Below are positions 7,698-21,827 of a DNA stretch of 24,000 nt, in pieces; within the stretch, counting starts at the first letter, position 1; every line of letters begins with the position of its first letter. A program made the position numbers and the translations under genes. The notes beneath the pieces were generated by a model, which did no database searches, was not told the origin of the DNA, and saw only the letters and a program-made list of their open reading frames with translations. This stretch comes from Pseudomonas knackmussii B13 (lineage in GTDB: Bacteria; Pseudomonadota; Gammaproteobacteria; Pseudomonadales; Pseudomonadaceae): positions 1,978,769 through 2,002,768 of the forward strand of contig NZ_HG322950.1 in the NCBI RefSeq assembly GCF_000689415.1, given 5' to 3'.

Positions 7698-7861
7698 AGG
7701 TGGGGTGAGGGCGCTCCAAGCAGGGGCTGCTGCTTGTCTGAAAAGTCCGATGCTAGAGCCGTTTCCTCGGTTTACGTAGGAAAGGCATTCTGATAAGAAT
7801 TGGATTATCCCGCGGAAGCCATGCTCCGTACCACAACGATAATGAAACAGGGATATAGGCC

Positions 7862-10573
7862 GTGGACGTCGTGTTCAAAACCGCAGCCGGCAGCCTTTCG
7901 CGTCATCAGTCTTCGCTCCCCCAGGTGCCTGCCGATCATCTGTACCTTCCCCAGGTCCAGTCCGCACTGGATCGTTCCAAGCATTTCCGAGTCCTGCTGT
8001 TCTCTGCGCCTGCCGGTTTCGGCAAGAGTGCCGCTTTGGCGTCGCTTGCAGCTCAGCGTGAGGAACGCGGCCACCACGTGGTGTGGATTTCCCTCGAGAG
8101 TGCCGACGACGACCCGGTGCGCTTCTGCACCCGGCTGACCGAGTCGCTCGCCGCCGCCTTGCCCGGCGTCGGCGCCGATGCCCAGAGCTACCTGCAGAAC
8201 ACCCTGCGTGTGCCGGTCGTCGCAGTCATGGAAAGCCTGCTGATGGACCTGGCGCGTTGCGAGCAGCCGGTCCTGCTGGTGCTGGATGACTTCGATCGCA
8301 TTGGCCACGAAGAAATCCTCGGTGGCCTCAACCGCCTGGTGCAGTACGCCCCGCCAGCCTTCACCCTGGCCATCGGCAGCCGTTCGCTGCCGCCGCTCAG
8401 CCTGGCCACCTGGCGCGCCAAGGGTCTGTTGCTGGAAGTCGGCCTCGAAGAGCTGCGCCTGAGCGAAGAACAGACCCGCGACTACTTCCGCCGCAGCGGT
8501 CTTGAACTGGCCGACGAATGCCTGCGCGCGCTGTACACGCAGACCGAGGGTTGGGTGATCGGGGTACACCTGGTGAGCCTGTGGCTGCGTCAGCAACCCA
8601 GCGGCACGCCCCTGAACCTCGAGGCCCTGCGCGGTGACCAGGCGGCGGTCGGTGGTTATCTACTGCGCGCGGTCTTCGAGCGCCTACCCGACGACATCCG
8701 TAGCATCCTGCTGTCTCTGAGCGTGGCCAGTCGCCTGAACGGCGACCTGGCCAATGCCCTGACTGGTCGCCAGGACGGCCAGGCCCTGCTGGAGCGCCTG
8801 GACAGCCTGCAACTCTTCCTCCTGCCGCTGGACCGCGAGCGCCAGTGGTACCGCTTCCACCAGCTGTTCGCCGACTTCCTCCGCGCGCACCTGCGCGATC
8901 GCGAGCCGGAACGCTTCAAGCAGCTGCACTTCAACGCGAGCCTGTGGTTTACCAACCACCACATGCCGACCCTGGCGATCGAACACGCCTGCCTGGCCGA
9001 AGACCCGGAAATGCTAGCCGCGCTGGTCGATGGCTACGGTCTGGAGCTGATCAACCGCGGCCAGCTGTACCTGATCTCGCGCTGGCGCCGGCACGTGCCG
9101 GACGAGATCGCCGCGCGCTATCCGATCCTGGTGCTCAGCGATGTCTGGACCCGCGCCACCGAGCTCAGCCTCGCCGAAGCCAATCGCATGCTCGACGAGC
9201 TGCTGGCGCGCTGGAGCGACGGCAAGCCGCAGTCGCCCATGGGCGACCAATACCTGTCGGCGCTGGCGGTGAAGGCCGTGCTGGCGCTGCAGAAGGACGA
9301 TCTCGAACAGTGCATCGCCCTGGCGCGCCGGGTGGAGAGCCAGCTGGGGCAGAACTCGGCGTTCCTCGAGTGCGCCATCCTGCTGGTCGCCGCCTTCGCC
9401 CAGGTCATGCATGGCCAGGCCGAGCAGGCGCGGCGCCTGATGGGGCTGGCGCAGCAGCGCAATCATTTCCTCGACGGCCGCTACCTGCACATGCAGCTGT
9501 CCACCATCGAGGTGATGCTGGCGCTGGAGCAAGGCCACGTGAAGCAGGCGCAGCTGCTGGTCGATCGCGTCCGCGAGCAGGCGGTGCCGCTGTTCGACCG
9601 GCGCTCCCAGGCCCTGGCCCTGCCGGCGATCACCGAGAGCCTGACGGCCTACTACCGCATGGAGCTCGATGGCCTGGAGGCCCGCCTGCGTTGGGCGTTG
9701 GGGCGGGTCGACGTGATCAACCCCATCGATCTGTACGCCCAGGGCGTGCAGTGCCTGGCGCGCATCCAGCGCCTGCAGGGGCGCAGCAAGGAGGCCCTGG
9801 CGACCCTCGGCCTGATGCAGGCGCTGGCGTCGCGCAACCACTCCTGGCGCATCTTCGCCATGGCGGTGGGGGAGGAGATCAACCTGATTCTCCAGGAGCC
9901 GGCCGCCGACCGCTGCAAGCGCGCCGAGCAGCGCCTCAACGGCATCGATTGGCAGAAGCTCGCTGCTTCGTATCGCCAGGGCCCGTTCAACCCGGTGCTC
10001 TGGGTACGCGGCATCAGCCGGGTGCGCCTGCTGCAGGCGCGCGGCCATTTCAGCGAAGCGCTGCACGAGATCACCCAACTGCGCGCGCTGCTGCAACCCG
10101 GCTGGCACGGTCTGCAGCGCCTGCGCCTGGACCTGCTGGCGGCGCTCAGCTACCAGCGCCTGGGCTACCAGGAGCGCGCCAACAGTCTGCTCGGTCAATG
10201 CCTGATCGGCGCCGAGCGCGAAGGGGTGCGTAGCCTCTTCATCGAGGAGGGCGAGGGCATCCGCCTGCTCCTCCAGCAACTCGAGTCCACCGAACGCCAG
10301 CCGGCGCTGCAGGTCTTCATCCGCGGCCTGTTGTCCGCCTGGCCAGGACAGGAAATACGCAAGGCACAGGACGTGCTCGAGGAAGGGCTGACCGACCGCG
10401 AGCGGGAAGTGGTGTGTCTGGCTGCCCAGGGACTCTCCAACGAGGAGATCGGCCAGAAGCTGTCGCTGGCCCTGGGAACCGTCAAATGGCACCTGCACAA
10501 CATCTACGAGAAGCTCAAGGTGCGTAATCGGACCCAAGCGATCCGCCGTGCCCGCGAGCTGAGCCTGCTCTGA
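7862..10573 (+). CDS. MalT-like LuxR-family transcriptional regulator (N-terminal STAND P-loop NTPase, helical/TPR-like sensor region, C-terminal LuxR/FixJ HTH), copy 1
   Basis: Walker A LLFSAPAGFGKSAAL; Walker B VLLVLDDFDRI; TEGWVIGVHL and WYRFHQLFADFL motifs; C-terminal LTDREREVVCLAAQGLSNEEIGQKLSLALGTVKWHLHNIYEKLKVRNRTQA. GTG start at 7862, with CAGGGA 8 nt upstream. Confidence 0.9.
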   Translation: MDVVFKTAAGSLSRHQSSLPQVPADHLYLPQVQSALDRSKHFRVLLFSAPAGFGKSAALASLAAQREERGHHVVWISLESADDDPVRFCTRLTESLAAALPGVGADAQSYLQNTLRVPVVAVMESLLMDLARCEQPVLLVLDDFDRIGHEEILGGLNRLVQYAPPAFTLAIGSRSLPPLSLATWRAKGLLLEVGLEELRLSEEQTRDYFRRSGLELADECLRALYTQTEGWVIGVHLVSLWLRQQPSGTPLNLEALRGDQAAVGGYLLRAVFERLPDDIRSILLSLSVASRLNGDLANALTGRQDGQALLERLDSLQLFLLPLDRERQWYRFHQLFADFLRAHLRDREPERFKQLHFNASLWFTNHHMPTLAIEHACLAEDPEMLAALVDGYGLELINRGQLYLISRWRRHVPDEIAARYPILVLSDVWTRATELSLAEANRMLDELLARWSDGKPQSPMGDQYLSALAVKAVLALQKDDLEQCIALARRVESQLGQNSAFLECAILLVAAFAQVMHGQAEQARRLMGLAQQRNHFLDGRYLHMQLSTIEVMLALEQGHVKQAQLLVDRVREQAVPLFDRRSQALALPAITESLTAYYRMELDGLEARLRWALGRVDVINPIDLYAQGVQCLARIQRLQGRSKEALATLGLMQALASRNHSWRIFAMAVGEEINLILQEPAADRCKRAEQRLNGIDWQKLAASYRQGPFNPVLWVRGISRVRLLQARGHFSEALHEITQLRALLQPGWHGLQRLRLDLLAALSYQRLGYQERANSLLGQCLIGAEREGVRSLFIEEGEGIRLLLQQLESTERQPALQVFIRGLLSAWPGQEIRKAQDVLEEGLTDREREVVCLAAQGLSNEEIGQKLSLALGTVKWHLHNIYEKLKVRNRTQAIRRARELSLL

Positions 10574-10574
10574 C

Positions 10575-13292
10575 ATGAACATGATGAATTCTCAGCAGCC
10601 CACGCCGCTGCTGCGCACCAAGCTGTTCCCGCCGCACGCGGATGGCGTGGCGCTGTTGCCGCGCCAGGCCTTGATCGACCGCCTGTACGGTGCGCGCAAC
10701 CAGCGCGCGCTGATCCTCAGCGCGCCGGCAGGGTTCGGCAAGAGCACGATCCTCAGCCTGTTTCGCCGGCGCCTGCAGGAGAGCGGGGCGCTGGTAGCCT
10801 GGCTGTCCTGCGACGAAGGCGACAGCGAGCCGCAGCGCTTCCTGCAATATCTGGTGGCGAGCATCCGCAGCGTCGCCGAGGGCTTCGGCGCCAACACCTC
10901 GAACCTGCTGCAGTCGGACATGACGCTGCCGCTGGAGGGGCTGCTCGATGCCTTCCTCGCCGACCTCAAGCGCATCGATGGCCAGCTCTATCTGTTCCTC
11001 GACGACTTCCACCGCATCCGCCATCCGGCGCTCACGCCCGGCGCGCGCTATCTGATCGAGCACCTGCCGGACAACGTCCGCCTGGTTACCAGCACGCGCT
11101 ACCGGCCACGCTTCCTGGTCGACGAACCGGCGCTGTCGCCCTGGGCCTTCTGCCTGAGCGGCGCGGATCTGCGCCTGACCCGCGAAGAAGCCGACACCTA
11201 TCTGCTGGAGCTCAAGGGGCTGTCTCTGGCCGAGTCCGAGCTGGCGCTGCTCTACAAGCGCACCGAAGGCTGGATCACCGCGCTGCACCTGGCCGCCCTG
11301 GCGCTGGCCCGGCACAGCGACCGCGCCGCCTTTCTGCGCGGGCTGTCCGGTACCGAACGGGACATAGCCGACTACCTCGCCGAAGACGTGCTCGCCTCGC
11401 TGCCGGCGCCGCTGCAGCAATTCCTCGACCAGACCTCCGTGCTCGACGAGTTCTGCGCCGAGCTGTGCAACGCCCTGACCGGGCGGCGCGACGGCATGGA
11501 CATGCTCATGCGCCTGCAGAACGAGCAATTGTTCATCATCCCGCTGGACGACCAGCGCGAGTGGTTCCGTTACCACCACCTGTTCGCCGAGTTCCTCCAC
11601 GGGCGCTTGGCGCGCAGCGCCGATCCCACGCCGTTGCTCAATGCCGCGGCGCGCTGGTGCGAGAGCCGCGACATGGCCGATCGCGCGGTGCGCTATGCGC
11701 TGCGTGCGCGTGACTACGCTTTTGCCGCCGACTTGCTGGAGCGCCAGGGCGCGCGGCTGATCGCCGGCAACCGGGTGTACAGCATCCTCGGCATGCTCGG
11801 CAGCATTCCCGCCGAGGTGATCCGCGAGCACCCGGTGTTCCAGATCTTCTATGCCTGGCAGTTGGCCTTCGAGCAGAAGTTCGCCGAGGCCGAGGCCCTC
11901 ATCGAGGAGCTCAGCGCACGGCTGCTGCTGGGGCAGGGCAAGGCGCGCAACTTCGGTCTGGCCGAGTTGCTGGCGGTGGCCCAGGTACTCAAGGCGCTGG
12001 TGCTGCTCTACCAGGACAAGCTGGAGGCGAGCCTCAAGGTCTCGCGCCAGTGGCTGTCGCTGGTGCCTGCGAACCAGCCGGTGTTCCGCGCGAGCCTGGC
12101 GTGCATCCTCGCCGCTGCTCATGCACTGCTGGGCGACTATGCCGAAGCGGCCGGTGCCATCGGCATCGCCCGCGAATGCCTGCGCATGGCGGACAGCGAG
12201 TACCTGCAGGTGGTGGCGAGCATGATCGAGGCGCTGATCTGCAAGGAGAGCGGCGAACTGGAGCGCGGGCGGACCATCGCCGAAAGCGCGCGCAGCCGGG
12301 TCGAGCGGGTGTTCGGCCGGCGCAGTAGGGTAGGTGGGCCGTTGTCGCTGGCCTACGCCGATATCCTCTACGAGCAGGATCGCCACGCCGCGATCCTCGC
12401 CGAACTGCCGCTCGCCACGACCTGGCGCGACGTGGCGACGCCGGTCGAGCTGATCAGCCGCGGCCAGTTGGTGATGGCCAAGGCGCGTTTCTTTGCCGGC
12501 GAGGCCGACCAGGGTCTGGCCCAACTCGACGAATGGCTGGCCGGGCTGCAATCGCCGGGTTACGAGCGGGTCAATGCGCTGGCCATGAGTTGCAAGGTGC
12601 AGCTGTTGCTTTGGCTGCGTCGACCCAACGAGGCCGAGCGCGTTTGCCTTCAACTGGCGCGACAGCTCTCGGGGCTTTCCGCGGAGCGCTTCGCTGACGC
12701 CCACGCCGCGCTGTGCCTGGCCGAGGCGCGCCTGGCGTTGTCCGAGCGGCATGCCGAGAAAGCGCAACAGCGCCTGGAAGCCTGCCTGGCGGCGACGACT
12801 TCGCCCTATCTGCGCGACCGGCGCTTGCGTCTTTCCTTGTTACTTTCTGTTGCGTATTGGCAGAAAGGTAACAGCGAAAAAGCCTTCGCACTCTTCGCGC
12901 CGACTCTCGAAGAGGCCTGGAACCAGGGCTATCGCCGCCTGTTCCAGGACGACGCGCTCTGGCTGCTGCCGTTCTGGGAGGCCTGGCGCGAAGCCGAGCC
13001 CAAGCGCGCCGCCGCCTGGCAAGGGGTGGCCGAGATGCTCCGCGAGCAGTGCCGCCGGCTCTCCGTCGACCCGGAAGGTTTCGAGGAAAATCAGGATGTT
13101 AGCCACCGCGAGCGGGAGATCCTGCGGCTGGTCGCGGCGGGCCTTTCCAATCGCGATATCGCCCAGGCGGTACATCTGTCGGAGGCCACCATCAAGTGGC
13201 ACCTGCACAACCTGTTCGCCAAGTTGGGAGTGCGCAGTCGTACCCAGGCAGTTCTCAAGGGGAAGAGCCTCGGCTTGCTGAGCGAGGCGTGA
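10575..13292 (+). CDS. MalT-like LuxR-family transcriptional regulator, copy 2 (paralogue of the upstream gene)
   Basis: Walker A LILSAPAGFGKSTIL; Walker B LYLFLDDFHRI; TEGWITALHL; WFRYHHLFAEFL; C-terminal VSHREREILRLVAAGLSNRDIAQAVHLSEATIKWHLHNLFAKLGVRSRTQA. The ATG lies 1 nt after the stop of copy 1 (TGA-C-ATG). Confidence 0.9.
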   Translation: MNMMNSQQPTPLLRTKLFPPHADGVALLPRQALIDRLYGARNQRALILSAPAGFGKSTILSLFRRRLQESGALVAWLSCDEGDSEPQRFLQYLVASIRSVAEGFGANTSNLLQSDMTLPLEGLLDAFLADLKRIDGQLYLFLDDFHRIRHPALTPGARYLIEHLPDNVRLVTSTRYRPRFLVDEPALSPWAFCLSGADLRLTREEADTYLLELKGLSLAESELALLYKRTEGWITALHLAALALARHSDRAAFLRGLSGTERDIADYLAEDVLASLPAPLQQFLDQTSVLDEFCAELCNALTGRRDGMDMLMRLQNEQLFIIPLDDQREWFRYHHLFAEFLHGRLARSADPTPLLNAAARWCESRDMADRAVRYALRARDYAFAADLLERQGARLIAGNRVYSILGMLGSIPAEVIREHPVFQIFYAWQLAFEQKFAEAEALIEELSARLLLGQGKARNFGLAELLAVAQVLKALVLLYQDKLEASLKVSRQWLSLVPANQPVFRASLACILAAAHALLGDYAEAAGAIGIARECLRMADSEYLQVVASMIEALICKESGELERGRTIAESARSRVERVFGRRSRVGGPLSLAYADILYEQDRHAAILAELPLATTWRDVATPVELISRGQLVMAKARFFAGEADQGLAQLDEWLAGLQSPGYERVNALAMSCKVQLLLWLRRPNEAERVCLQLARQLSGLSAERFADAHAALCLAEARLALSERHAEKAQQRLEACLAATTSPYLRDRRLRLSLLLSVAYWQKGNSEKAFALFAPTLEEAWNQGYRRLFQDDALWLLPFWEAWREAEPKRAAAWQGVAEMLREQCRRLSVDPEGFEENQDVSHREREILRLVAAGLSNRDIAQAVHLSEATIKWHLHNLFAKLGVRSRTQAVLKGKSLGLLSEA

Positions 13293-13439
13293 AATCACGG
13301 AAGATCCGGCTCCATCCCTTGGATGGGCTGGCAGGTGGGGGTTGGACCAGTAGCTTGAAACCAGGACGCGAAGCCTGAGTGCTTCACGAATCCATGCCCG
13401 CGACACCTAGGGAAGCCGTGGCGGGTCTGGAGGGTCGGC

Positions 13440-13481
13440 TTGGCCGGCCAACCTGCAGCGGGGCAGGACGCCCACTGCAGC
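13440..13481. promoter_or_regulatory. two adjacent palindromic elements in the upstream region of the exported-protein operon (candidate operators)
   Basis: There is a perfect 12-bp palindrome TTGGCCGGCCAA (13440-13451). It is followed by the imperfect inverted repeat CTGCAGCGGG...CCCACTGCAG (13453-13481). Both lie 40-81 bp upstream of ATG 13521. Their function is inferred only. Confidence 0.3.
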
Positions 13482-13520
13482 CCTGGGGCAAACCCACCTG
13501 AACACTGGAGAGACACAACA

Positions 13521-13961
13521 ATGAAAAAAATCCAACAACTGGTTCTTGCAAGTGCTGTTCTGGCCGCTCCGTTCATGGCTCATGCCGACCTGAAATCCAT
13601 GGATGACACCGCGCTGTCCAGCGTGACCGGTCAGGACGGCATCAGCATCGCCGGTACCTTCAACGCCTCTATCGGCGCCGTGACCTACACCGACGCCGAC
13701 ACCAACGGCGGCTCCCTGGTGCTGCAGGGCATCCATCTGCCGAGCGTAACCATCGCCGACAGCGCCCCGATGACCGTAGACGTGGTTACCACCACCATCG
13801 GCAGCACCCCGACCCAGCAGCTGGCTATCGGCCTGCCGACCGTTACCGGCGACGTGACCATCGACGCCATCAAGGTTGGCAGCACTGGCGCCAGCATCGG
13901 CTCGCTGACCGTCTCCAACCTGAACCTGGCCGGTTCCACCGTGAAGATCTGGGGTCACTGA
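13521..13961 (+). CDS. small exported beta-rich protein of unknown function (candidate secreted/fibre subunit)
   Basis: GGAGAG lies 8 nt upstream of the ATG. The Sec signal is MKKIQQLVLASAVLAAPFMAHA|DL. The mature part is Cys-free, rich in T/V/G/S/I/D, and has alternating polar/apolar runs (VTIADSAPMTVDVVTTTIGS, SLTVSNLNLAGSTVKIWGH). The ORF-track start at 13440 is upstream of the RBS and signal peptide and is rejected. Confidence 0.75.
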   Translation: MKKIQQLVLASAVLAAPFMAHADLKSMDDTALSSVTGQDGISIAGTFNASIGAVTYTDADTNGGSLVLQGIHLPSVTIADSAPMTVDVVTTTIGSTPTQQLAIGLPTVTGDVTIDAIKVGSTGASIGSLTVSNLNLAGSTVKIWGH

Positions 13962-13986
13962 TCACGGTGTTCGCGTAGTACCCGAT

Positions 13987-14009
13987 CTCGCCGGCGCCTC
14001 GCCGGCGAG
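13987..14009 (+). other. intra-operon GC-rich stem-loop directly after the small-subunit gene (possible attenuator or mRNA stabiliser)
   Basis: CTCGCCGGCG (13987-13996), loop CCT, CGCCGGCGAG (14000-14009): a perfect 10-bp stem with no following T-tract, located 26 nt after the stop codon. Confidence 0.5.
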
Positions 14010-14038
14010 GTCCATCCAGAATTCAAGGAGTGGGATGG

Positions 14039-14800
14039 ATGTTCGAGATTCTGCTGGGGAGCCTGCTGGGGCTGTTCGGTTTCACCCAGGCGGTGGACAC
14101 CAAGCCGCAACCGCAAGGCACGGTCAATCTCTCGCAGCAACTCACTCCCAACGGCCCCTTGCGTGAGTCGGTGCAGCTCGAGCCGATGAGCCAGGTGCAG
14201 TTCCGCAACGTCATTCGCCAGTCGTACGACTACAGCTGCGGCTCGGCGGCCCTGACCACGCTGCTGGACTACTACCTGGGGCGCAACCTGGAAGAGCGCC
14301 AGGTCATGGAAGGCCTTCTGAAGTACGGCGAGGCGGACAAGATCGTCCAGCGTCGCGGTTTCTCGCTGCTCGACATGAAGCGCTACGCCGCTGCACTGGG
14401 CTACAAGAGCGGCGGTTTCCGTGCCGAATTCTCCGACCTCGACTCGCTGGAAAACCCGGCGCTCGTGCCCATCCACTACGGCGGCTTCAAGCATTTCGTG
14501 GTGGTGCGTGACGTCTACAACGATCACGTTTTCGTTGCCGATCCTGCCCTGGGCAACATCAGTTTCACCCGCAGCCGCTTCGAGGCGATCTGGGACCAGA
14601 ACGTCCTGTTCGTGATCTACCCCGGCGGCCAGGAGCCGAAGAGCGCCCTGGCCCTGAAAGAACAGGACCTGCGCCTGGTGGATGACCGTACCGTGAGCCT
14701 GCTGGCCTTCCGCGATTTTCCGGAGCTGAGCAAGTTCGCCAGCAACCGCGTGACGGAGGCCGCCTCGAAAGGCGACGTGCAGTACATCCGCAACAAGTGA
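14039..14800 (+). CDS. standalone periplasmic C39-family cysteine peptidase (bacteriocin-processing-type papain fold)
   Basis: AAGGAG (14025-14030) lies 8 nt before ATG 14039. The signal-like N-terminus is MFEILLGSLLGLFGFTQA|VD. The catalytic set is present: VIRQSYDYSCGSAALTTLLDYYLG (Gln and Cys; Cys codon 14237-14239) and KHFVVVRDVYNDHVFVADPALG (His/Asp). Confidence 0.85.
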   Translation: MFEILLGSLLGLFGFTQAVDTKPQPQGTVNLSQQLTPNGPLRESVQLEPMSQVQFRNVIRQSYDYSCGSAALTTLLDYYLGRNLEERQVMEGLLKYGEADKIVQRRGFSLLDMKRYAAALGYKSGGFRAEFSDLDSLENPALVPIHYGGFKHFVVVRDVYNDHVFVADPALGNISFTRSRFEAIWDQNVLFVIYPGGQEPKSALALKEQDLRLVDDRTVSLLAFRDFPELSKFASNRVTEAASKGDVQYIRNK

Positions 14801-14846
14801 GCGCTCTTTTCATCGACCCATAAGAACAAGACCAGGGGATAGCATC

Positions 14847-15851
14847 ATGGATTTCAGGGGGTATGCGTGCGCCGCCATACTGGCCTTGCTGGCTGGCGGC
14901 CCTGTGTGGGCCGAGGAGAAATCGGTCGACCAGGCGCGTGATGCACTGTCCAAGAAAGAGGGTGACGCCGACAGCGCCAAGGCGCTGGAGCAGGTGTTCC
15001 AGGCGGCGGAACAAAGCTACACCTTGCTGAAGAAGGGCGAGCGCACGCTCACCTATGGCTTCGACTACTCGATGATGCGCGACACCCGCATCCAGCAGGT
15101 GCGCACTGGCCAGAACGTCTACAGCGTCCTGGCGCAGAGCGAGGCGCAGCACACCTTCACCAACTCGTTCACCTTCGACTACGGCATCTGGGACAACCTG
15201 ACCTTCAGCCTGCGCCTGCCGTTCGTGGCCAAGTACGACACCGAGCGCGACGTGCATGCCTACAGCCTCGGCGACATCTCCACGACGTTGCGCTGGCAGC
15301 CCTGGCCATCGGTACGCGGACGTCCCGTCACCACCTTCTACGCCACCCTCGGCCTCCCCACCGGCGACAGCCCGTACGACATGAATCCGGACAAGGACGT
15401 GTCTACCGGCAGCGGCTACTACAGCCTGGGCGTGGGCGCCAACATGTCCTACGTGATCGACCCGGTCGTGCTCTACGGCTCGCTCGGTTACACCTACAAC
15501 ATGCAGGTCGACAGCATCCATCAGTACCAATACAACGAGGAGCTGCAGAAGGTCACTCCGGGCGACACCCTGAACTTCGCCATGGGCATGGCCTACGCGC
15601 TGTCCTATGACGTATCGCTGGCCACCTCGTACCAGATGGCCTACCAGATGAAGAGCCACTACCACTTCGACGACCGCACGGTGGAGGCTCCGGAACAGAC
15701 CAGCGCAATCATGAACTTCTCGCTCGGCCTGCGAACTTCACCCGACTACATCGTCAACGTGAACGCCGGCTTCGGCATGACCGAGGACTCGCCGGATGTC
15801 CTGCTGGGGGTTTCCCTGCCCCTGGACATCAAGGGCCTGAAACCCGACTAA
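14847..15851 (+). CDS. outer-membrane beta-barrel protein with an N-terminal helical segment (resembles the 'MetA-pathway/transporter' barrel family)
   Basis: Signal MDFRGYACAAILALLAGGPVWA|EE, then a charged helical stretch (KSVDQARDALSKKEGDADSAKALEQVFQAAEQSY). After that come amphipathic Y/G-rich beta-strands (TLTYGFDYS, YSLGDISTTLRW, YGSLGYTYNM, LNFAMGMAYALSYDVSLATSYQMAYQM, VNVNAGFGMT). There is no terminal Phe, so the family assignment is tentative. Confidence 0.6.
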   Translation: MDFRGYACAAILALLAGGPVWAEEKSVDQARDALSKKEGDADSAKALEQVFQAAEQSYTLLKKGERTLTYGFDYSMMRDTRIQQVRTGQNVYSVLAQSEAQHTFTNSFTFDYGIWDNLTFSLRLPFVAKYDTERDVHAYSLGDISTTLRWQPWPSVRGRPVTTFYATLGLPTGDSPYDMNPDKDVSTGSGYYSLGVGANMSYVIDPVVLYGSLGYTYNMQVDSIHQYQYNEELQKVTPGDTLNFAMGMAYALSYDVSLATSYQMAYQMKSHYHFDDRTVEAPEQTSAIMNFSLGLRTSPDYIVNVNAGFGMTEDSPDVLLGVSLPLDIKGLKPD

Positions 15852-15869
15852 CCCGCGAGCGAGACCCAC

Positions 15870-17468
15870 ATGACGAAGCGCATTTCGCCACTCGTGCTGG
15901 CGATGGCTGGGGCGGGGCTTGGCTGGATTCTGCCGGCGCACGCACAACTGGCCAACGACATCACCATCGGCAACCCCAAGGCGATGGCCCTGGGCAACGC
16001 GGTGACTGCCGATTCGACCGGCATCGACGCCGTGCACTACAACCCGGCCGCACTGACCAAACTCAAGGGCCGGCAGACCACGGTGAAGCTGGTGGCCGGC
16101 TTCATGGATATCCGCGCCGGCTTCCATGCGCCGCCAGATTATGGCTCGAGCACCTTCGGCGTGACCGACGACCCGATCGCCAACTCGCACAGCCGCACCA
16201 CCACGCCGACCATGTACCTGCCAGGCCTCGGCGGCATGACCGACGTGCCGGCGCTGGTAGCGCCGCTGGCCGGCATCTCGATCAACCCGCCGGGCTCGAA
16301 ATTCACCTTCGCCACCAACGTCTACACCCCGCAGGCGCTGGGCTATTCGCGCGATTCCGACAGCGATCCGGCACGCTACGATGGCCGTCGTGTATCGCTG
16401 CAGCGGCTGACCTACTTCTCGCCCTCGGTGGGCTACCAGATGAACGACGCCTGGTCGTTCGGCCTGTCGATCGGCTTCTCGCACCAGGCCATGGCGCTGG
16501 ATACCGACTTCCGCAACCCGGGCATCCTCACCGGCCTGCTGGAAACCCTGCACAACACCACCTGCGTGCCGGGGGCGCAGGAAATCGTCGAGCTGGTGTT
16601 CAACGTCTGCGGCGGCAAGATCGGCCCTTACGACAAGCTGGCCAACCTCAAGCTGGACATGCAGCAGACCCTCTCGCCGAGCTACAACCTCGGCGTGCTC
16701 TGGGAGCCCAACGACTGGTTCGGCTGGGGTGCGGTGTACCAGAGCGAGTCGCGCATGAAGCTCAAGGGCAAGTACCGCGTCGACTACACCCAGGACTGGC
16801 AGGGCTTCTGGTCCGGCCTGCAGAGCTCGGTGTTCGGTGCCTTCCTCAGTCCGCTGTTCCCCAACGGCAACGTCGACGAAGAGCACGGCGTAGCCACGCT
16901 GAAGCTGACCAACCCGGACAACTTCTCCACCGGCATCAAGATTCGTCCGTTCGACAACTGGCAGTTCAACGCCGACCTCAAGTGGAGCGGCTACAGCGAC
17001 TGGAACAACATGACCATCGAGTTCGACAAGGAACTCGACCTGCTGCGCATCGCCAAGAACTTTGCGCCCAACGGCGCCACCGACCACAGCATCATTCTCG
17101 ACCGCGGCTACCGCGACACCTGGAGCTACGCCGCCGGCGTACAGTACGACGTGAACGACCGCCTGCAGCTGCGCGCCGGCTACGAGTACCGCCCCTCGGC
17201 GATCCCCAAGAGCAAGGCCGACGCCCTGGTGCCCATCGGCGACGCCAACCTCTACGGCCTCGGCCTGGGCTATCGCTGGGACAAGGACACCACCATCGAC
17301 CTGGGCTTCAACTACTTCGTTTCCAAGCAGAGCATCAAGGCCGGCGAGAGCTGCAACCTGACCTGCACCGGGATCGACAACCTGGTGTACAACCCCTATG
17401 CCGGCATGGATGTGGACACGACGGTGAAGGCCTATATTTTCGCACTGACCTACAACACCACCTTCTGA
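15870..17468 (+). CDS. FadL/OmpP1/TodX-family outer-membrane channel (hydrophobic-compound transporter fold)
   Basis: Signal MTKRISPLVLAMAGAGLGWILPAHA|QL. The hatch-domain signature is GNPKAMALGNAVTADSTGIDAVHYNPAALTKL. The body is long and beta-rich, and the C-terminus is the OMP-type ...YIFALTYNTTF. Confidence 0.85.
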   Translation: MTKRISPLVLAMAGAGLGWILPAHAQLANDITIGNPKAMALGNAVTADSTGIDAVHYNPAALTKLKGRQTTVKLVAGFMDIRAGFHAPPDYGSSTFGVTDDPIANSHSRTTTPTMYLPGLGGMTDVPALVAPLAGISINPPGSKFTFATNVYTPQALGYSRDSDSDPARYDGRRVSLQRLTYFSPSVGYQMNDAWSFGLSIGFSHQAMALDTDFRNPGILTGLLETLHNTTCVPGAQEIVELVFNVCGGKIGPYDKLANLKLDMQQTLSPSYNLGVLWEPNDWFGWGAVYQSESRMKLKGKYRVDYTQDWQGFWSGLQSSVFGAFLSPLFPNGNVDEEHGVATLKLTNPDNFSTGIKIRPFDNWQFNADLKWSGYSDWNNMTIEFDKELDLLRIAKNFAPNGATDHSIILDRGYRDTWSYAAGVQYDVNDRLQLRAGYEYRPSAIPKSKADALVPIGDANLYGLGLGYRWDKDTTIDLGFNYFVSKQSIKAGESCNLTCTGIDNLVYNPYAGMDVDTTVKAYIFALTYNTTF

Positions 17469-17478
17469 GGACGGACAG

Positions 17479-18648
17479 ATGCGTCGCTGCACTCCACTGG
17501 GCATTGTTCTCCTCGGCGTGGCCTTGCTGTCCGCGGGTGCGCAGGCGGGCGCCGGACGCTATCTGTCGTGGATCGACGACAGCGGGCAGGTGCACAACAC
17601 CTTCGTCGACGACGACTTCAATCGCCAACAGCGCCAGGCGGCCAAGCGCATCGACCAAAGCGACCAGGCGCGCCTGCTCGACGACGGCGGCACGCGCTGG
17701 CCGGGGAGCCAGGCGGCGGGGGAGAGCAAGCGGCGTTACTTCACCTGGGTGGACGGCCAGGGCAACCTGCAGAACAGCTTCTACGCGGCCAACCAGGCGC
17801 CTGCCGGTGGCGCCGACTACGTGCTGCCCAATGGCGATCGCTCGTCCGAGTACATCGATGCCGAGGCGTACGAAGACAAGGGCTTCGTTCGCAGCCAGAA
17901 CGGCAATCCGTACTACACCTGGGTCGACGAGCAGGGGCGCATGCACAACTCGCCGATCAGCCCCGAGGAGCGCGCAGCGGGCATTCGCCGCAACGACATC
18001 GCCTTCACCGAAGGTCGGCAGGTCGAGTTCGGCAAGCGTCCGCAGGCATTGCCTGGGCTCGACGGCAGCGGCGAGCAGACCGACGCCATGAAGGCGCTGC
18101 TCAAGGGCAGCGGCAAGACCCTGAACGACCTCTACCAGGACCTGCAGCGGCGCTGCTGCGAGCAGATCGGCGAGGGCGATTTCACCGAACTGAGTGCCGA
18201 TGAGCCGCGCTACGAGGAGCTCAACAAGTTCTCGCCGAGCTTCGATTTCCCGATGGGCAAGAGCTACTACGTGGCCATGAAGCTGCCGGCATCGCAGCAG
18301 GTCTATGGCCTGCGCGTGCGTAGCTTCGCCAACCATCAGGTGGTCTATCCGTCGCTGCTGTTCCTCGACGAACACAAGCGCCCGACCCGCCTGGTCAGCG
18401 ACGCGGTGTACAAGCTCAATCCGGAGACCTGGTACCGCTACGCCTTCATCGAAGGCACGGTGCCGGTGCGCGCCAACGAAGGTGAACGCTACGTACTGCT
18501 GCTGACCACGGACGAGGACCGCAGTCTGCAGACCCTCGACAACAAACCGTACAAGCGGCCGCTGGAAAAACTGGCGGTGAACGATGCCGGCATGAAGGTG
18601 CGCGACCACGGCGACCAGGGCGGTTTCGAGCTGGCGGTGATTCGCTGA
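17479..18648 (+). CDS. exported periplasmic protein: three DUF4124-like Y-x-W-(I/V)-D-x-x-G repeats plus a C-terminal MalM-like domain
   Basis: GAGGA lies 7 nt upstream. Signal MRRCTPLGIVLLGVALLSAGAQA|GA. The repeats are RYLSWIDDSGQVHNTF, RYFTWVDGQGNLQNSF and PYYTWVDEQGRMHNSP. The C-terminal ...FDFPMGKSYYVAMKLPA...VVYPSLLFLDEHKRP...YVLLLTTDED... resembles the maltose-operon periplasmic protein MalM, from memory. Confidence 0.65.
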   Translation: MRRCTPLGIVLLGVALLSAGAQAGAGRYLSWIDDSGQVHNTFVDDDFNRQQRQAAKRIDQSDQARLLDDGGTRWPGSQAAGESKRRYFTWVDGQGNLQNSFYAANQAPAGGADYVLPNGDRSSEYIDAEAYEDKGFVRSQNGNPYYTWVDEQGRMHNSPISPEERAAGIRRNDIAFTEGRQVEFGKRPQALPGLDGSGEQTDAMKALLKGSGKTLNDLYQDLQRRCCEQIGEGDFTELSADEPRYEELNKFSPSFDFPMGKSYYVAMKLPASQQVYGLRVRSFANHQVVYPSLLFLDEHKRPTRLVSDAVYKLNPETWYRYAFIEGTVPVRANEGERYVLLLTTDEDRSLQTLDNKPYKRPLEKLAVNDAGMKVRDHGDQGGFELAVIR

Positions 18649-18663
18649 GGTTGGGCGGGGGAA

Positions 18664-18750
18664 TCCCTGTAGGAGCGGACCTTGTCCGCGATTCGCGCGC
18701 ATGGCGCGCTCCTACAGGTTTTTCGCGGATGAGATCCGCTCCTACGGGCG
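18664..18750. repeat. REP-like palindromic element cluster at the convergent gene junction; the first pair doubles as a terminator hairpin for the + strand operon
   Basis: CCTGTAGGAGCG (18666-18677) pairs with CGCTCCTACAGG (18707-18718) and is followed by TTTTT (18719-23). A third partial copy, TCCGCTCCTAC, sits at 18736-18746. The GTAGGAGCG core is the familiar Pseudomonas REP motif (recalled). Nested small hairpins are GCGGA/TCCGC and GCGCGC/GCGCGC. Confidence 0.6.
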
Positions 18751-18761
18751 GGGCGGCGCCG

Positions 18762-19748
18762 TCAGATCTCCCGCTGCGGCACGTGCCCGAACAGGCTCTG
18801 GGCGAACTTCACGCGCTGCTCCGGCGTTTCCTCAATACCCTTGGCGCGCAGGCTTTCCAGATGCGCCTCCACTGCCTGAGTTCGGCCGACCAGGCCGCAG
18901 TCGTTGGCGATCTGGATGTTCAGGCCGGGGCGTGCGTTGAGCTCGAGGATCAGCGGGCCCTTGTCCTGGTCCAGCACCATGTCCACGCCGATGTAGCCAA
19001 GGCCGCAGAGCTCGTAGCAGCCCGCGGCGAGCTTCATGAAGCCGTCCCAGAACGGCAGCTGCACGCCGTCCACCGCGTTGGCGGTGTCCGGGTGCTTGGC
19101 GATCTTGCGGTTCAGCCAGGTGCCGCGCAGTGTGCTGCCGGTGGCGAGGTCCACACCCACGCCGATGGCGCCCTGGTGCAAGTTGGCCTTGCCGTTGGAC
19201 TGGCGGGTCGGCAGGCGCAGCATGGCCATCACCGGGTAGCCCATGAGGACGATGATGCGGATGTCCGGCACGCCCTCGTAGCTGATGCTCTTGAAGATCG
19301 GGTCGGGGGTGACGCGGTACTCGATCAGTGCGCGGTCACGGTGCCCGCCGAGGGAGTAGAGGCCGGTGAGGATGCTGGACAGCTGGTACTCGATCTCGTC
19401 GCGGCTGATGATCCGCCCGGAGACCGTCTTGTAGTTGCCCTCGAAGCGGTCGGCGATCACCAGGATGCCATCGCCGCCGGCGCCCTGCGCAGGCTTGATC
19501 ACGAAGTCGTTGCGCTCGCCGATGATGCTGTCGAGCTTCTCGATTTCCTTCTCGGTGGAGATGATCCCGTACATCTCCGGCACCTGGATGCCGGCCTCGA
19601 TGGCGCGCTCCTTGGTGATGATCTTGTCGTCGACGATCGGGTACAGATGGCGCTTGTTGTACTTCAGCACGAAGTCCGCGTTGCGCCGGTTGATCCCCAT
19701 GATGCCCTTGGCTTCCAGGGCTTTCCATCGCTTGATCAGGCCGAACAT
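18762..19748 (-). CDS. RimK-related ATP-grasp enzyme (alpha-L-glutamate ligase-like protein)
   Basis: 328 aa: MFGLIKRWKALEAKGIMGINRRNADFVLKYNKRHLYPIVDDKIITKERAIEAGIQVPE...FVIKPAQGAGGDGILVI...GYIGVDMVLDQDKGPLILELNARPGLNIQ. This is the ATP-grasp pattern of the rimK-related glutamate-ligase subgroup. Confidence 0.88.
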   Translation of the reverse strand: MFGLIKRWKALEAKGIMGINRRNADFVLKYNKRHLYPIVDDKIITKERAIEAGIQVPEMYGIISTEKEIEKLDSIIGERNDFVIKPAQGAGGDGILVIADRFEGNYKTVSGRIISRDEIEYQLSSILTGLYSLGGHRDRALIEYRVTPDPIFKSISYEGVPDIRIIVLMGYPVMAMLRLPTRQSNGKANLHQGAIGVGVDLATGSTLRGTWLNRKIAKHPDTANAVDGVQLPFWDGFMKLAAGCYELCGLGYIGVDMVLDQDKGPLILELNARPGLNIQIANDCGLVGRTQAVEAHLESLRAKGIEETPEQRVKFAQSLFGHVPQREI

Positions 19749-19751
19749 GGC

Positions 19752-21278
19752 TCAGTCCTTGAGGAAGGCTTTGAAGCGGAACAGCTCGGTCAGGCGGTAG
19801 CCGCGGTAGCGACCCATCGCGAGCATGAAGGCGACCAGGATCAGCAGCACCGCCGGGAAGGTGAAGACGAAGTACACCAGTTCCGGCACGCGCATCAGGA
19901 TGTGCGCCAAGGTGGCCGCCACCAGGGTGCCGAGGGCCGCCTTCATCGCATGCGCGGCGCCGCGCTCCTCCCAGGTGATCGACAGGCGCTCGATGCTCAT
20001 GGTCAGGATCACCATCGGGAACAGCGCCACCGACAGCCCGCTCTCGAAGCCGAGCTTGTGGCTGAGCAGGCTGATGATCGCGATCATCACCACCACGAAC
20101 GTCAGCACCACCGACAGGCGCGGCAGCATCTGCAGCTTCAGGTGCTCGAGGTACGAGCGCAGCGACAGGCCCAGGGCGGTGATCACGGTGAACAGGCCGA
20201 TGCCCCACTGCAGGCCGGTCTCGCGGAAGGCGAGGGCGATCAGCACAGGGGTGAAGGTGCCCAGGGTCTGGATGCCGATCAGGTTGCGCAGCACCAGGAT
20301 CACCAGCACGCCGAAGGGGATCATGATCATGATCTGGAAGGTCTGCTGGGTCGACAGCGGCAGGCCGTACAGCGAGTACTCGAGGAAGGTCGCGTCGGTG
20401 TTGGCGTCGGAGATCTTCGCCAGGCGGATGGCATTCATCTCGCTGCTGTTGATGCTGAAGCTGACCTGGGCCTTCTTGCCACCGTCCACGCTCAGCAGCG
20501 GCTCGTCGCCCAGCCACCAGATCACCCGGTCGTTGGGCAGGCCGCGCTCGCCGGTCTCGGGGTTGAAGTACAGCCAGTCCTTGCCGTTGTAGCTGCGCAG
20601 CCACAGCTCCGGGGTTTGCTGCTGGTTGGCCAGCAGGCGCAGGGTGTGCACCCGCTCCAGCGGCACGTGGGCGATGCCCAGCAGGGTCTCGACGATGTAG
20701 GCGCGCTTCTCCAGGCTGGTGTCGCCGGCCATCAGCAGCTTGACGTTGTCGTCGGCCTGGTTGTTGGCACGCTTGATGGTCTCGCTGACGAAGGTCTCGA
20801 TGTCGGCCGAATGCTGGCGGATCGGAGCGATCAGCGCTTCGGCTGCGATCTTCTCCGGGCCTTCCAGCGGCGGCGTGTCGCGGAAGATCGGGCCTTTCTC
20901 CTTGGGCTTCTCGCCGCTGAAGCGCTTGGTCAGCACCAGGCGGTAGTAGAGGGTCTGCTTGCCGCTGGCGCGGCGCGAAGACCAGGTCACCTTACGGTTG
21001 CCGTCGGAGCGGTTGATGCTCACGCCGTAGTTGTTCGACACGAAGCTCTCGTTGAGGCTCGTGTAGTCCTGGGTCAGTGGCGGGACGAACATCTGCACCT
21101 TCACCGGCGTCTTGGGCGCGGCTTCGAAGCTGACCCGTGCGTCGATGTTCCAGAGGTCCTCGGTTTCCGCTTCGGTCATGGGAATTCCGAGGACGAAGAT
21201 CTGGTACGCGGTGATCGAGATGCCCAGCAGCACCAGGGTCGCGATCAGGATCTTCAGGTGTAGGTTCAGAGAGCGCAT
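19752..21278 (-). CDS. membrane protein with an N-terminal anchor, a periplasmic inactive-transglutaminase-like domain and a C-terminal 7TM module
   Basis: 508 aa. The N-terminal TM is LKILIATLVLLGISITAYQIFVL, followed by an approximately 270-aa soluble domain and then about seven hydrophobic helices (FQIMIMIPFGVLVILVL ... FTFPAVLLILVAFMLAM). The stop lies 3 nt before the ATP-grasp start. The family name is recalled from comparative-genomics literature. Confidence 0.78.
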   Translation of the reverse strand: MRSLNLHLKILIATLVLLGISITAYQIFVLGIPMTEAETEDLWNIDARVSFEAAPKTPVKVQMFVPPLTQDYTSLNESFVSNNYGVSINRSDGNRKVTWSSRRASGKQTLYYRLVLTKRFSGEKPKEKGPIFRDTPPLEGPEKIAAEALIAPIRQHSADIETFVSETIKRANNQADDNVKLLMAGDTSLEKRAYIVETLLGIAHVPLERVHTLRLLANQQQTPELWLRSYNGKDWLYFNPETGERGLPNDRVIWWLGDEPLLSVDGGKKAQVSFSINSSEMNAIRLAKISDANTDATFLEYSLYGLPLSTQQTFQIMIMIPFGVLVILVLRNLIGIQTLGTFTPVLIALAFRETGLQWGIGLFTVITALGLSLRSYLEHLKLQMLPRLSVVLTFVVVMIAIISLLSHKLGFESGLSVALFPMVILTMSIERLSITWEERGAAHAMKAALGTLVAATLAHILMRVPELVYFVFTFPAVLLILVAFMLAMGRYRGYRLTELFRFKAFLKD

Positions 21279-21284
21279 GGGGCG

Positions 21285-21827
21285 TTACTCGGCAGTTTTC
21301 TTCGCAAGGGGACAGCCGGGCTGGCCGGCGGCGTATTTCAGGCTGGGATCGACCAGCGCACCGAAGCGCTTGAGCGCGTCGGAGCCGATCAGCAGCGGGT
21401 ATTGGAAGGCGCTGCGATCGGTCAAGTTCACTTCGATGGTGCGGCGCACCTTGCCCAGGCAGACCTCCAGTTCGATGACCGGGCGTGCGGTGTAGGCCTT
21501 GTCTTCGTCGGGGTCGAAATCGCCGTGGCGGCGCTTGATCTTGCTGATGCGTGCCAGCGGCCGTTCGATCGGCTCGCGGTCGGCGCTGTCGGTGGCCAGG
21601 TAGAAGCGCACCCAGGTTTCGCCATCGCGCTTGAAGCGCTTGATGTCGCGGGCGCTGAGCGATGCGGTCTTGGCGCCGGTGTCGAGCTTGGCGGCGAGCA
21701 CTTCGTCGAGTTCGCCGATGTGCGCGTATTCGTTGAGGCCGTAGACGGTCTTACCCGCGGCCTGGGCGGTGACGCCGAGGGCGGGGAGCAGGAACAGCAG
21801 CAGAAGGGTGGTGAGTCTGAGTTGCAT
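21285..21827 (-). CDS. exported retropepsin-like aspartic protease (family usually mislabelled 'ATP-dependent zinc protease', RimB-like)
   Basis: Signal MQLRLTTLLLLFLLPALGVTAQA|AG. It has AKLDTGAKTASL (DTGA, nt 21672-21683) and the retropepsin hydrophobic-Gly-x-Asp motif YPLLIGSDALKRF. The stop lies 6 nt before the 7TM gene start. Confidence 0.8.
   Translation of the reverse strand: MQLRLTTLLLLFLLPALGVTAQAAGKTVYGLNEYAHIGELDEVLAAKLDTGAKTASLSARDIKRFKRDGETWVRFYLATDSADREPIERPLARISKIKRRHGDFDPDEDKAYTARPVIELEVCLGKVRRTIEVNLTDRSAFQYPLLIGSDALKRFGALVDPSLKYAAGQPGCPLAKKTAE

Follow-up and report, generated by a model that had tools for sequence, protein, structure and literature searches.

A probable Fil-type pilus operon with Fap-related machinery in Pseudomonas knackmussii B13

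Organisation of the operon

A stretch of 24,000 nucleotides of Pseudomonas knackmussii B13 (contig NZ_HG322950.1, positions 1,978,769 to 2,002,768 of the forward strand), referred to below as the window, carries at 13521-18648 an operon of five co-directional genes, here called g1 to g5 (Table 1), which probably encodes a Pseudomonas Fil-type pilus system, with machinery related to that of Fap and with a subunit whose second leader would be removed by a protease. An earlier reading of these letters, made without database searches (the sequence-only reading), had given intergenic gaps of 77, 46, 18 and 10 nt, and these coordinates were reproduced by the open reading frame listing and by a script. 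Domain searches bore out the identities it had proposed for the parts, namely a Cys-free g1, a C39 peptidase for g2, an outer-membrane barrel for g3, a FadL-family barrel for g4 and a MalM-like g5, and the Pfam and NCBIfam searches confirmed that g1-g5 encode neither an ATPase nor an inner-membrane transporter. The G+C content of the window is 62-69%, and the nearest relatives are found in the Pseudomonas delhiensis / citronellolis / nitroreducens group.

A promoter scan found no sigma-70 consensus upstream of g1 (13293-13520), where the only palindromes are short, such as CCATCC-N3-GGATGG at 13312-13326, and in the same scan no canonical terminator was present 3' of g5. Purine runs resembling Shine-Dalgarno sequences precede all five genes; those of g1 (GGAGAG), g2 (AAGGAG) and g5 (GAGGA) are clear, whereas those of g3 and g4 are weak, and the Shine-Dalgarno sequence previously assigned to every gene holds to that extent. 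A hydrophobic N-terminal export signal is likewise present on all the products, but only those of g1, g3, g4 and g5 show the basic n-region and the AxA-type site of a canonical Sec signal, the type attributed to the whole set. The export signal of g2, MFEILLGSLLGLFGFTQA, is without a basic n-region; since, in addition, the relatives of g2 show no clear AxA site in this segment, it may act as an uncleaved signal-anchor and not as a cleaved signal peptide.

Table 1. Features of the operon and of the region upstream of it, in window coordinates; fractions refer to the 81 Pseudomonadaceae loci described in the text.
Feature	Position	Strand	Description
First MalT-type STAND/LuxR regulator	7862-10573	+	903 aa; Pfam GerE, TPR_MalT, AAA_16/22; in 77/81 loci
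Second MalT-type STAND/LuxR regulator	10575-13292	+	905 aa; Pfam GerE, TPR_MalT, AAA_16; in 78/81 loci
Promoter and 5' leader region	13293-13520	+	228 nt; 13293 is the base after the regulator stop codon
g1	13521-13961	+	146 aa, Cys-free; DUF6160
g1, Sec signal peptide	13521-13586	+	aa 1-22, MKKIQQLVLASAVLAAPFMAHA; basic n-region, core with Kyte-Doolittle 2.6, AHA site; conserved in the family
g1, second leader	13587-13634	+	aa 23-38 (D23-Q38), DLKSMDDTALSSVTGQ; double-glycine-like, predicted C39 substrate cut after Q38
g1, mature fibre subunit (predicted)	13635-13961	+	aa 39-146, 108 aa, all-beta; DGISI start, KIWGH end; span includes the stop codon
GC-rich hairpin	13987-14009	+	10 bp, in the g1-g2 spacer, ahead of the machinery genes
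g2	14039-14800	+	253 aa; FilB/FapD-like C39 cysteine peptidase, in the periplasm or tethered to the membrane
g3	14847-15851	+	334 aa; outer-membrane barrel, FilC/FapF-like; predicted export channel
g4	15870-17468	+	532 aa; FadL-family outer-membrane barrel, FilD-like
g5	17479-18648	+	389 aa; periplasmic, DUF4124-like repeats and MalM domain

The subunit g1 and its second leader

The product of g1 belongs to the Pfam family DUF6160 (PF19657), which it matches with 84.1 bits over residues 2-86 (cut-off 27). This is its only family match, and none was obtained with a repeat family, in agreement with the earlier statement that g1 is without CsgA- or FapC-like repeats. The mature part is composed mainly of Thr (19), Gly (15), Ser (14), Val (12), Ala (11) and Ile (11), with 4 Gln and 4 Asn. 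By an exhaustive profile search the family amounts to 626 clusters at 50% identity, and its members are mostly about 145-520 aa long, a single one reaching 2064 aa; g1 is the minimal form with a single module.

A logo built from 107 diverse full-length members revealed a segment of 15-16 residues, placed directly after the AxA site of the Sec signal, with the pattern [LM]xx[MLI]DDxx[LM]xx[VMT]TGQ[AD]G[VI][TS]I. When positions are counted from the Gly (98%), Leu or Met occurs at -13, Met, Leu or Ile at -10, Asp at -8 (95%), Leu or Met at -5, Val, Met, Thr or Ile at -2, Thr at -1 (85%) and Gln at +1 (98%). The other end of the protein is equally constrained, as every one of the 107 members terminates with [IV][YW][GA]H. 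If the positions are counted instead from a cut after the Gln, those occupied by hydrophobic residues are -15, -12, -7 and -4, and the Gly (98%) is at -2; this is the spacing reportedly seen in double-glycine leaders, both by Havarstein in 1995 and in structures of PCAT1 with its substrates. The leader of g1 has it, with L24, M27, L32 and V35 as the hydrophobic residues and G37 at -2 for a cut after Q38. In the AlphaFold 2 model of g1, whose mean confidence (predicted local distance difference test) is 78, the leader includes a low-confidence helix at residues 29-36. At position -1 the characterised C39 enzymes favour Gly, Ala or Ser, whereas 98% of the DUF6160 members have Gln and their minor paralogues Arg, Ala or Gly.

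The minor DUF6160-like paralogues of Burkholderiales bear the same leader, which ends with G-Q, G-R or G-A, and a leader common to paralogues fits the pattern expected of a shared recognition and cleavage tag. The processing that the sequence-only reading had located at the cell surface is predicted, instead, to take place in the periplasm, at this conserved leader. The double-glycine leaders of ABC transporters (ComA, PCAT1, LahT) show the same amphipathic spacing, the same Gly at -2 and a C39 enzyme with the same Q/C/H/D set; they are, however, cut in the cytoplasm, whereas the leader of g1 follows a Sec signal, its cleavage would be periplasmic, and no ABC transporter is involved.

Some DUF6160 proteins, among the long forms P0252-P0389, hold two to three copies of the beta-module, and the giant P0243 (2064 aa) has 10 matched stretches; both the leader and the [YW][GA]H end are kept in all of them.

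A native filament made of a DUF6160 protein

The model of g1 has a sole significant match in the PDB, 9XFV_A (Foldseek; TM-score 0.51, E 1e-4), and BLASTP aligned g1 with the same chain in the N-terminal part (E 3e-9) and in the C-terminal part (E 4e-8). The entry 9XFV (map EMD-66838), named 'pilus-like-alpha', is a native filament from karst-cave water (PMC12956863). Its helix rises by 11.7 Å and turns by 283.9 degrees per subunit, and the subunit compares to the AlphaFold monomer with a TM-score of 0.84 (PMC12956863). The authors used it as a handedness control only and matched it to UniProt A0A257CJ09, with no link to DUF6160, Fil or C39 (PMC12956863). We found that the DUF6160 family profile recognises the 9XFV sequence with an E value of 8e-43.

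The 9XFV chain consists of 173 residues identical to residues 38-210 of a protein of Burkholderiales bacterium PBB6 (P0484), whose precursor reads MKFAKLTAVAAILGALSVSASA-MTAIDDSTLSTVSGQ-DGVSIAG..., and begins directly after ...STVSGQ. Therefore, the ordered subunit extends from the residue that follows the invariant Gly-Gln to the C-terminus of the family. The features of this DUF6160 filament subunit are found again in g1, with DGISI following TGQ at the start, KIWGH at the end and the same fold. The P0484 gene is the first of an operon in which three DUF6160-like genes, a C39 gene, a gene for a 331-aa barrel, a FadL gene and a gene for a 201-aa protein follow in this order. A natural filament is thus formed by a DUF6160 homologue whose gene lies in an operon of this type, and its deposited chain starts after GQ, which supports the fibre assembly proposed for the locus by the sequence-only reading. 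Moreover, because the rise is 11.7 Å and the subunit is close to the AlphaFold monomer, the data favour a helical polymer built from folded subunits over a cross-beta amyloid.

The two systems share the family, the conserved termini and the DUF6160-C39-barrel-FadL operon. They differ in that the 9XFV subunit, from Burkholderiales and with 173 aa in its mature form, has an insertion of about 65 residues, containing helices, with respect to g1, and in that its operon includes the three additional minor DUF6160-like genes and an AraC-type regulator, and no MalM-like gene.

A minor observation concerns the internal structure of g1. Its N-terminal hairpin (aa 50-73, 13650-13740; IGAVTYTD..GGSLVLQGIHL) resembles the C-terminal one (aa ~112-140, 13854-13940; IDAIKVG..ASIGSLTVSNLNL), and BLASTP of g1 against 9XFV gave a weak third alignment, which suggests that a strand-turn-strand unit is duplicated within g1.

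The peptidase, the two barrels and g5

The product of g2 matches Pfam Peptidase_C39 with 74.8 bits (cut-off 22), and among the NCBIfam models it scores best with FilB (291.2 bits) and then with FapD (119.5 bits); its PDB matches are double-glycine peptidase domains. The residues Q61, C67, H152 and D168 are invariant in 125 homologues and align with the catalytic residues of LahT and PCAT1, confirming the standalone C39 peptidase with an intact Q/C/H/D set that had been recognised from the letters. An alternative GTG start is present at 14030, but at least 120 homologues, all those among the matches listed, are about 253 aa long. In the Fap system the C39 peptidase FapD is periplasmic as well; its catalytic Cys is needed for the secretion of FapC, and its substrate may be FapE or FapF instead of the main subunit (PMC5557850).

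The product of g3 gave 33 bits with a Pfam barrel family of the Phenol_MetA_deg type; its best NCBIfam match is FilC (318.7 bits), followed by FapF (67.9 bits), and the crystal structure of FapF (5O67) was matched with an E value of 5.7e-14 over residues 179-325, corresponding to the C-terminal half of the barrel. The barrels had been assigned to families other than those of Fap; for g3 this was wrong, since it is a FapF homologue. In front of the barrel there is a charged helical segment of about 45 residues (ARDAL..KEGD...Y.LLK.G), conserved from Pseudomonas to Burkholderiales. By homology with FapF, g3 would be the export conduit.

A full-length family match, with 371.8 bits over residues 19-532 (model positions 6-421), identifies g4 as a member of Toluene_X/FadL (PF03349). 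It scores 506.6 bits with FilD, and a weak match to the PorV family was also found (30 bits, cut-off 90). In the PDB the matches are FadL homologues (E 1e-9) and also TodX, g4 being about 100 aa longer than FadL. Its predicted role is that of a fibre anchor or assembly platform, or of an importer of hydrophobic molecules. Finally, in g5 a MalM domain at the C-terminus (100 bits with Pfam MalM, aa 259-387) is accompanied by three DUF4124-like repeats; no NCBIfam Fil model matched it, only MalM and DUF4124, and it would be a lineage-specific periplasmic accessory, possibly a chaperone.

Comparison with Fil, Fap and other systems

The NCBIfam models for Fil (NF050077-NF050080) are of the 'exception' type and tight on Acinetobacter, with cut-offs of 220, 475, 630 and 970 bits for FilA, FilB, FilC and FilD, respectively. 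The scores of g1-g4 are below these values (56.6, 291.2, 318.7 and 506.6 bits), but they are still the best matches and the homology is clear; no true Acinetobacter FilA sequence was recovered, ten candidate representatives all scoring under the FilA cut-off. The 'Fil' labels mentioned in the sequence-only reading proved right, as FilB, FilC and FilD are the best NCBIfam matches of g2-g4 and g1 matches the N-terminus of FilA. The system had also been called uncharacterised: it does bear a name, whereas the literature searched contained neither a published mechanism of Fil fibre assembly nor a functional statement on DUF6160.

The gene order subunit, C39 peptidase, barrel and FadL-type barrel is common to the Acinetobacter fil genes and to the operon described here, and g1 matches positions 1-58 only of the FilA model (57 bits), sharing with it the first strand as well as the signal peptide and leader. 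By contrast, the fifth gene is MalM-like here, with no match to any NCBIfam Fil model, and MalT-type regulators are present. In Acinetobacter filABCDEF the sixth gene encodes the surface lipoprotein FilF, which in A. baumannii is a vaccine candidate; no lipoprotein gene follows g5 in the window. FilA has been described as a fimbrial subunit of Acinetobacter Tol 5, on cells grown on triacylglycerol (PMC3498257; PMC11784438).

As for Fap, the two systems have in common a C39 peptidase, periplasmic and complete in its active site, and homologous barrels placed behind an N-terminal helical periplasmic segment, and both are Sec-dependent and independent of ATP at the outer membrane. The equivalog cut-offs for Fap are not reached (g2, 119.5 bits against 330 for FapD; g3, 67.9 against 700 for FapF). 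Because g3 is a homologue of FapF, and g2, after FilB, is nearest to FapD, the machinery of the operon is related to Fap by descent and is not just an analogue. The differences are in the cargo, which in Fap is an amyloid with N/Q-rich repeats and here a folded DUF6160 subunit, in the addition of an obligatory FadL-type barrel, and in g3, which is without the long linker of FapF.

Given this kinship, the operon might be thought to produce a second functional amyloid of the Fap/curli type, with g1 forming extracellular cross-beta structure, and the FapD-like and FapF-like components, the envelope-only and energy-independent logic and the richness of g1 in beta structure would all suit it. The mature g1, however, is free of N/Q-rich imperfect repeats, and no match to FapA, FapB, FapC, FapE or the Csg families was found among g1-g5 in Pfam and NCBIfam. 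Moreover, DUF6160 proteins conserve their termini and not a repeat core, and the homologous filament has a folded subunit and a rise of 11.7 Å, not of ~4.8 Å. On the basis of the composition of g1 and of this rise we rejected amyloid formation as the main explanation and consider it very unlikely.

The families that define chaperone-usher pili (usher and chaperone), type IV pili (prepilin peptidase and ATPase), curli (CsgG, CsgE and CsgF) and type V pili (a lipoprotein pilin) are absent from the Pfam and NCBIfam matches of g1-g5, and 9XFV is the sole pilin of the PDB that the g1 model matched. In the type V pili of Bacteroidota polymerisation is primed by a protease, the removal of an N-terminal segment licensing assembly, and PorV, in type IX secretion, is a FadL-family barrel that works in protein secretion and attachment, not in lipid uptake. 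Both are mechanistic analogies only: g1 is not a lipoprotein, and no sequence or fold relationship with type V pilins was detected. On the whole, the system would be hybrid-like, combining an outer-membrane export of the Fap type, a leader of the double-glycine type cut in the periplasm and a pilus of folded subunits, where both the cut and the export are predicted.

Conservation of the block

The conservation of the operon was followed in 81 Pseudomonadaceae loci, consisting of one P. aeruginosa contig and 80 species representatives with a subunit identity of 44-81%; the latter, all from Pseudomonadaceae, are the best 80 of 372 confirmed hits of a genome scan with a narrow alignment. An alignment of 40 DUF6160 sequences was too diverse as a search query, and wider taxa were sampled via contig look-ups. 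The genes g1-g2-g3-g4 are present in this order in 80/81 loci and g5 in 77/81, the exceptions being compatible with contig ends, and the two MalT-type regulators (regA and regB) precede them, in the order regA-regB-g1-g2-g3-g4-g5, in essentially all the non-truncated loci. The sequence-only reading would have been undermined by a loss of co-conservation; in these loci the five genes are, instead, kept as a block.

Outside this family, the core DUF6160-C39-FilC-FilD is kept in 4 Burkholderiales loci, which have an AraC-type regulator, 2-5 additional subunit paralogues and, in place of MalM, a DUF2059-like protein of about 200 aa. Equivalents of FilE and FilF were sought among the genes 3' of the FadL gene in Burkholderiales, and no NCBIfam match was obtained. 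In marine contigs carrying long forms of the subunit (L107, L112, L114, L130, L135 and L155), the DUF6160 gene is accompanied by a second DUF6160-like gene, in which the leader ends with AQ and the C-terminus is WIY[PAG]H, and then by a YgiQ-type radical SAM gene. These loci come from a metagenome scan with long-form members, which returned mostly contigs of 1-5 kb, about 8 of them informative. In a further locus, L147, a C39 gene is found ~9 kb downstream (8683-9612 and 18117-18866).

In P. aeruginosa the locus is bounded by a PAPS-reductase gene and a PEP-synthase gene. PA1764 has been published as a FadL paralogue (PMC6137939); from this and from the position of the locus we infer that g1-g5 correspond to PA1761-PA1765, and the two regulators would be PA1759 and PA1760. 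The statement in the sequence-only reading that the PAO1 equivalents are annotated as hypothetical fits the 'hypothetical protein' entries of PA1761 and PA1762 in the Pseudomonas Genome Database (PMC12431658). In a rubB mutant PA1761 is increased 13.5-fold and PA1762 17.9-fold, together with lipid-utilisation transcripts (PMC12431658).

This co-induction bears on a different explanation, in which the operon would serve mainly for the FadL-type uptake of a hydrophobic substrate (a lipid, an alkane or an aromatic compound), and g1, g2, g3 and g5 would be accessories that form no fibre. Several observations go in the same direction: g4 is unambiguously of the FadL family (372 bits; FadL and TodX in the PDB), MalT-type regulators are typical of catabolic regulons, Tol 5 shows Fil fimbriae on triacylglycerol-grown cells, a wax-ester synthase gene comes after the operon in the Burkholderiales locus L084, and the Pfam family of g3 takes its name from phenol degradation. 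An operon devoted to uptake would, on the other hand, be expected neither to encode homologues of the secretion components FapD and FapF (g2 and g3) nor to have, in a relative of the same type, a DUF6160 product that is a native filament subunit; catabolic enzymes are absent from it, as are inner-membrane transporters, and a role in uptake alone leaves the leader and the C-terminal motifs common to paralogous cargo unexplained. We regard it as improbable, although an uptake function of g4 could coexist with fibre assembly.

The spacer between g1 and g2

The region of the hairpin between g1 and g2 folds with -38 kcal/mol (z = -3.0). An equivalent hairpin, of different sequence, occurs in the same spacer in 25/25 inspected loci, and across the 81 loci (L001-L081) the median z is -3.1, with z < -2 in 80% of them and, in many, a T-rich run that follows the hairpin. 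The structure is kept through compensatory sequence change in Pseudomonadaceae. It is probably an attenuator or a stabiliser of the mRNA, and such an effect on expression would suit a main structural subunit that is needed in larger amounts than its machinery.

The same hairpin has to be considered if g1 is taken as a monomeric secreted or surface protein (an adhesin, or a surfactant-like or bacteriocin-like product), matured by C39 and released via g3 or g4. C39 peptidases classically mature secreted peptides, and g1, with 108 aa in its mature part, is the shortest form of DUF6160. The hairpin after g1, however, would fit a stoichiometric excess of the product, which is expected of a major structural subunit, g1 has both the conserved termini and the fold of the 9XFV subunit, and in Acinetobacter FilA was identified as a fimbrial component; a monomeric g1 is thus disfavoured and, in our opinion, improbable.

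Proposed mechanism

Drawing on the gene identities, on the conserved leader and C-terminal motifs and on the conservation of the block, we attribute a probability of about 0.7 to the identification of the operon as a Pseudomonas Fil-type pilus system, with Fap-related machinery and a second leader removed by a protease. The two MalT-type regulators encoded upstream would switch the operon on in response to a signal possibly related to lipids. The hairpin would either attenuate read-through or stabilise the g1 transcript, and g1 would be over-translated in comparison with the machinery. Pre-pro-g1 would then cross the inner membrane via Sec and lose its 22-residue signal peptide; in the periplasm, g2 would bind the 16-residue leader DLKSMDDTALSSVTGQ, as an amphipathic recognition helix of the double-glycine type, and cut after Gly37-Gln38. 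The mature g1, of 108 residues, would pass through the FapF-like g3 and polymerise outside the cell, by means of its conserved termini, into a helical and non-amyloid filament of globular, beta-rich subunits. In this scheme g4, the constant partner, would be either the anchor or assembly platform of the fibre, by analogy with PorV, or a channel for the uptake of hydrophobic compounds contacted by the fibre, while g5 would be a periplasmic accessory, possibly with a chaperone function.

Several points weigh against this proposal. Both the expression of the Pseudomonas operon and the formation of fibres by it are predictions, and PA1761 and PA1762 are weakly expressed in the wild type (PMC12431658). 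The match of g1 to FilA covers only the 58 N-terminal positions, past which g1, about half as long as FilA, diverges. With regard to the cleavage, the Gln at -1, or the Arg and Ala of the paralogues, departs from the preference of C39 enzymes; the start of the 9XFV chain reflects the density that could be modelled in an environmental sample, so that a disordered, uncleaved leader is formally possible; and, by analogy with FapD, whose substrate may be FapE or FapF, g2 could act on g3. Moreover, the conduit for export might be g4 and not g3. Finally, no C39, barrel or FadL gene adjoins the subunit genes in the marine long-form loci (~8 informative contigs), and the linkage between subunit and machinery is thus strong but not universal.

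A wider and more tentative idea, which we would not rate above a reasonable conjecture, is that the Fil/DUF6160 fibres are a separate class of pili, widespread in Gram-negative bacteria. All the subunits of this class, major and minor, would have a Sec signal and, next to it, a leader of the double-glycine type, whose removal in the periplasm by a dedicated C39 peptidase after the invariant Gly-Gln would license the export through a FapF-type barrel and the polymerisation via the conserved termini; the FadL-type barrel, with its lateral gate, would be a platform or anchor and not a lipid importer, and the pathway across the outer membrane would be energy-independent. If this is true, the long-sought type of substrate on which FapD acts in the Fap amyloid system could be recognised on the same grounds.

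Fil-type systems are known but poorly understood, and the interest of this one lies in its breadth, in its occurrence in two major pathogens and in a cleavage prediction that can be tested. The operon type is found in P. aeruginosa (as PA1761-PA1765, if our assignment is correct), in A. baumannii (fil), in many environmental Pseudomonadaceae and in Burkholderiales, and ~370 species-level genomes match one subunit pattern. What is new is the joining of DUF6160, a family of 'unknown function', with the name of the Fil pilus and with the unassigned native filament 9XFV, together with the proposal of a concrete biochemical event, the C39 cleavage past the invariant Gly-Gln of a second leader. If confirmed, this would add one more pathway of pilus assembly, akin to the Fap amyloid exporter, it would define a type of substrate for periplasmic C39 peptidases, and it would raise the question of why such a system always needs a barrel of the FadL family.

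Regulators and neighbouring genes

Upstream of the operon there are two paralogous MalT-type regulators of ~900 aa, in tandem and with a stop-to-start spacing of 1 nt (Table 1). The second one scores 310 bits with the NCBIfam MalT model, under the cut-off of 537 bits. The first (7862-10573) is likely to be the activator of the operon. These regulators may answer a lipid-related cue, as suggested by the Fil fimbriae of Tol 5 on triacylglycerol, by the wax-ester synthase gene of L084 and by the co-induction with lipid-use genes.

Downstream of the operon, on the minus strand (18762-21827), lies a triad coding for an ATP-grasp_ST ligase, an inactive-transglutaminase/7TM protein and a RimB-like zinc protease. 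It was considered as a part of the system and rejected: because only 48-50/81 loci retain it, the triad counts as a conserved module of its own.

In Pseudomonas, a chorismate-binding (pabB-like) gene is located just 5' of the regulators (6354-7697 in the window). The fil-like operon of Burkholderiales, in turn, is flanked by a trpE-like chorismate-binding gene on one side and by trpG/trpD-like genes on the other (6936-8411 and 19209-20528 in L083; 7035-8510 and 18148-20633 in L085). The neighbourhood of chorismate genes in both groups may be a coincidence or a favoured insertion site.

Two further neighbours were observed 3' of the fil-like operon in Burkholderiales: a WS/DGAT wax-ester synthase gene (L084, 11313-12683) and a gene for a DUF4382 lipoprotein (L083, 16986-18332), whose N-terminus, ...SCGGG, recalls the lipoprotein FilF. 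Their presence hints at a link with lipid metabolism.

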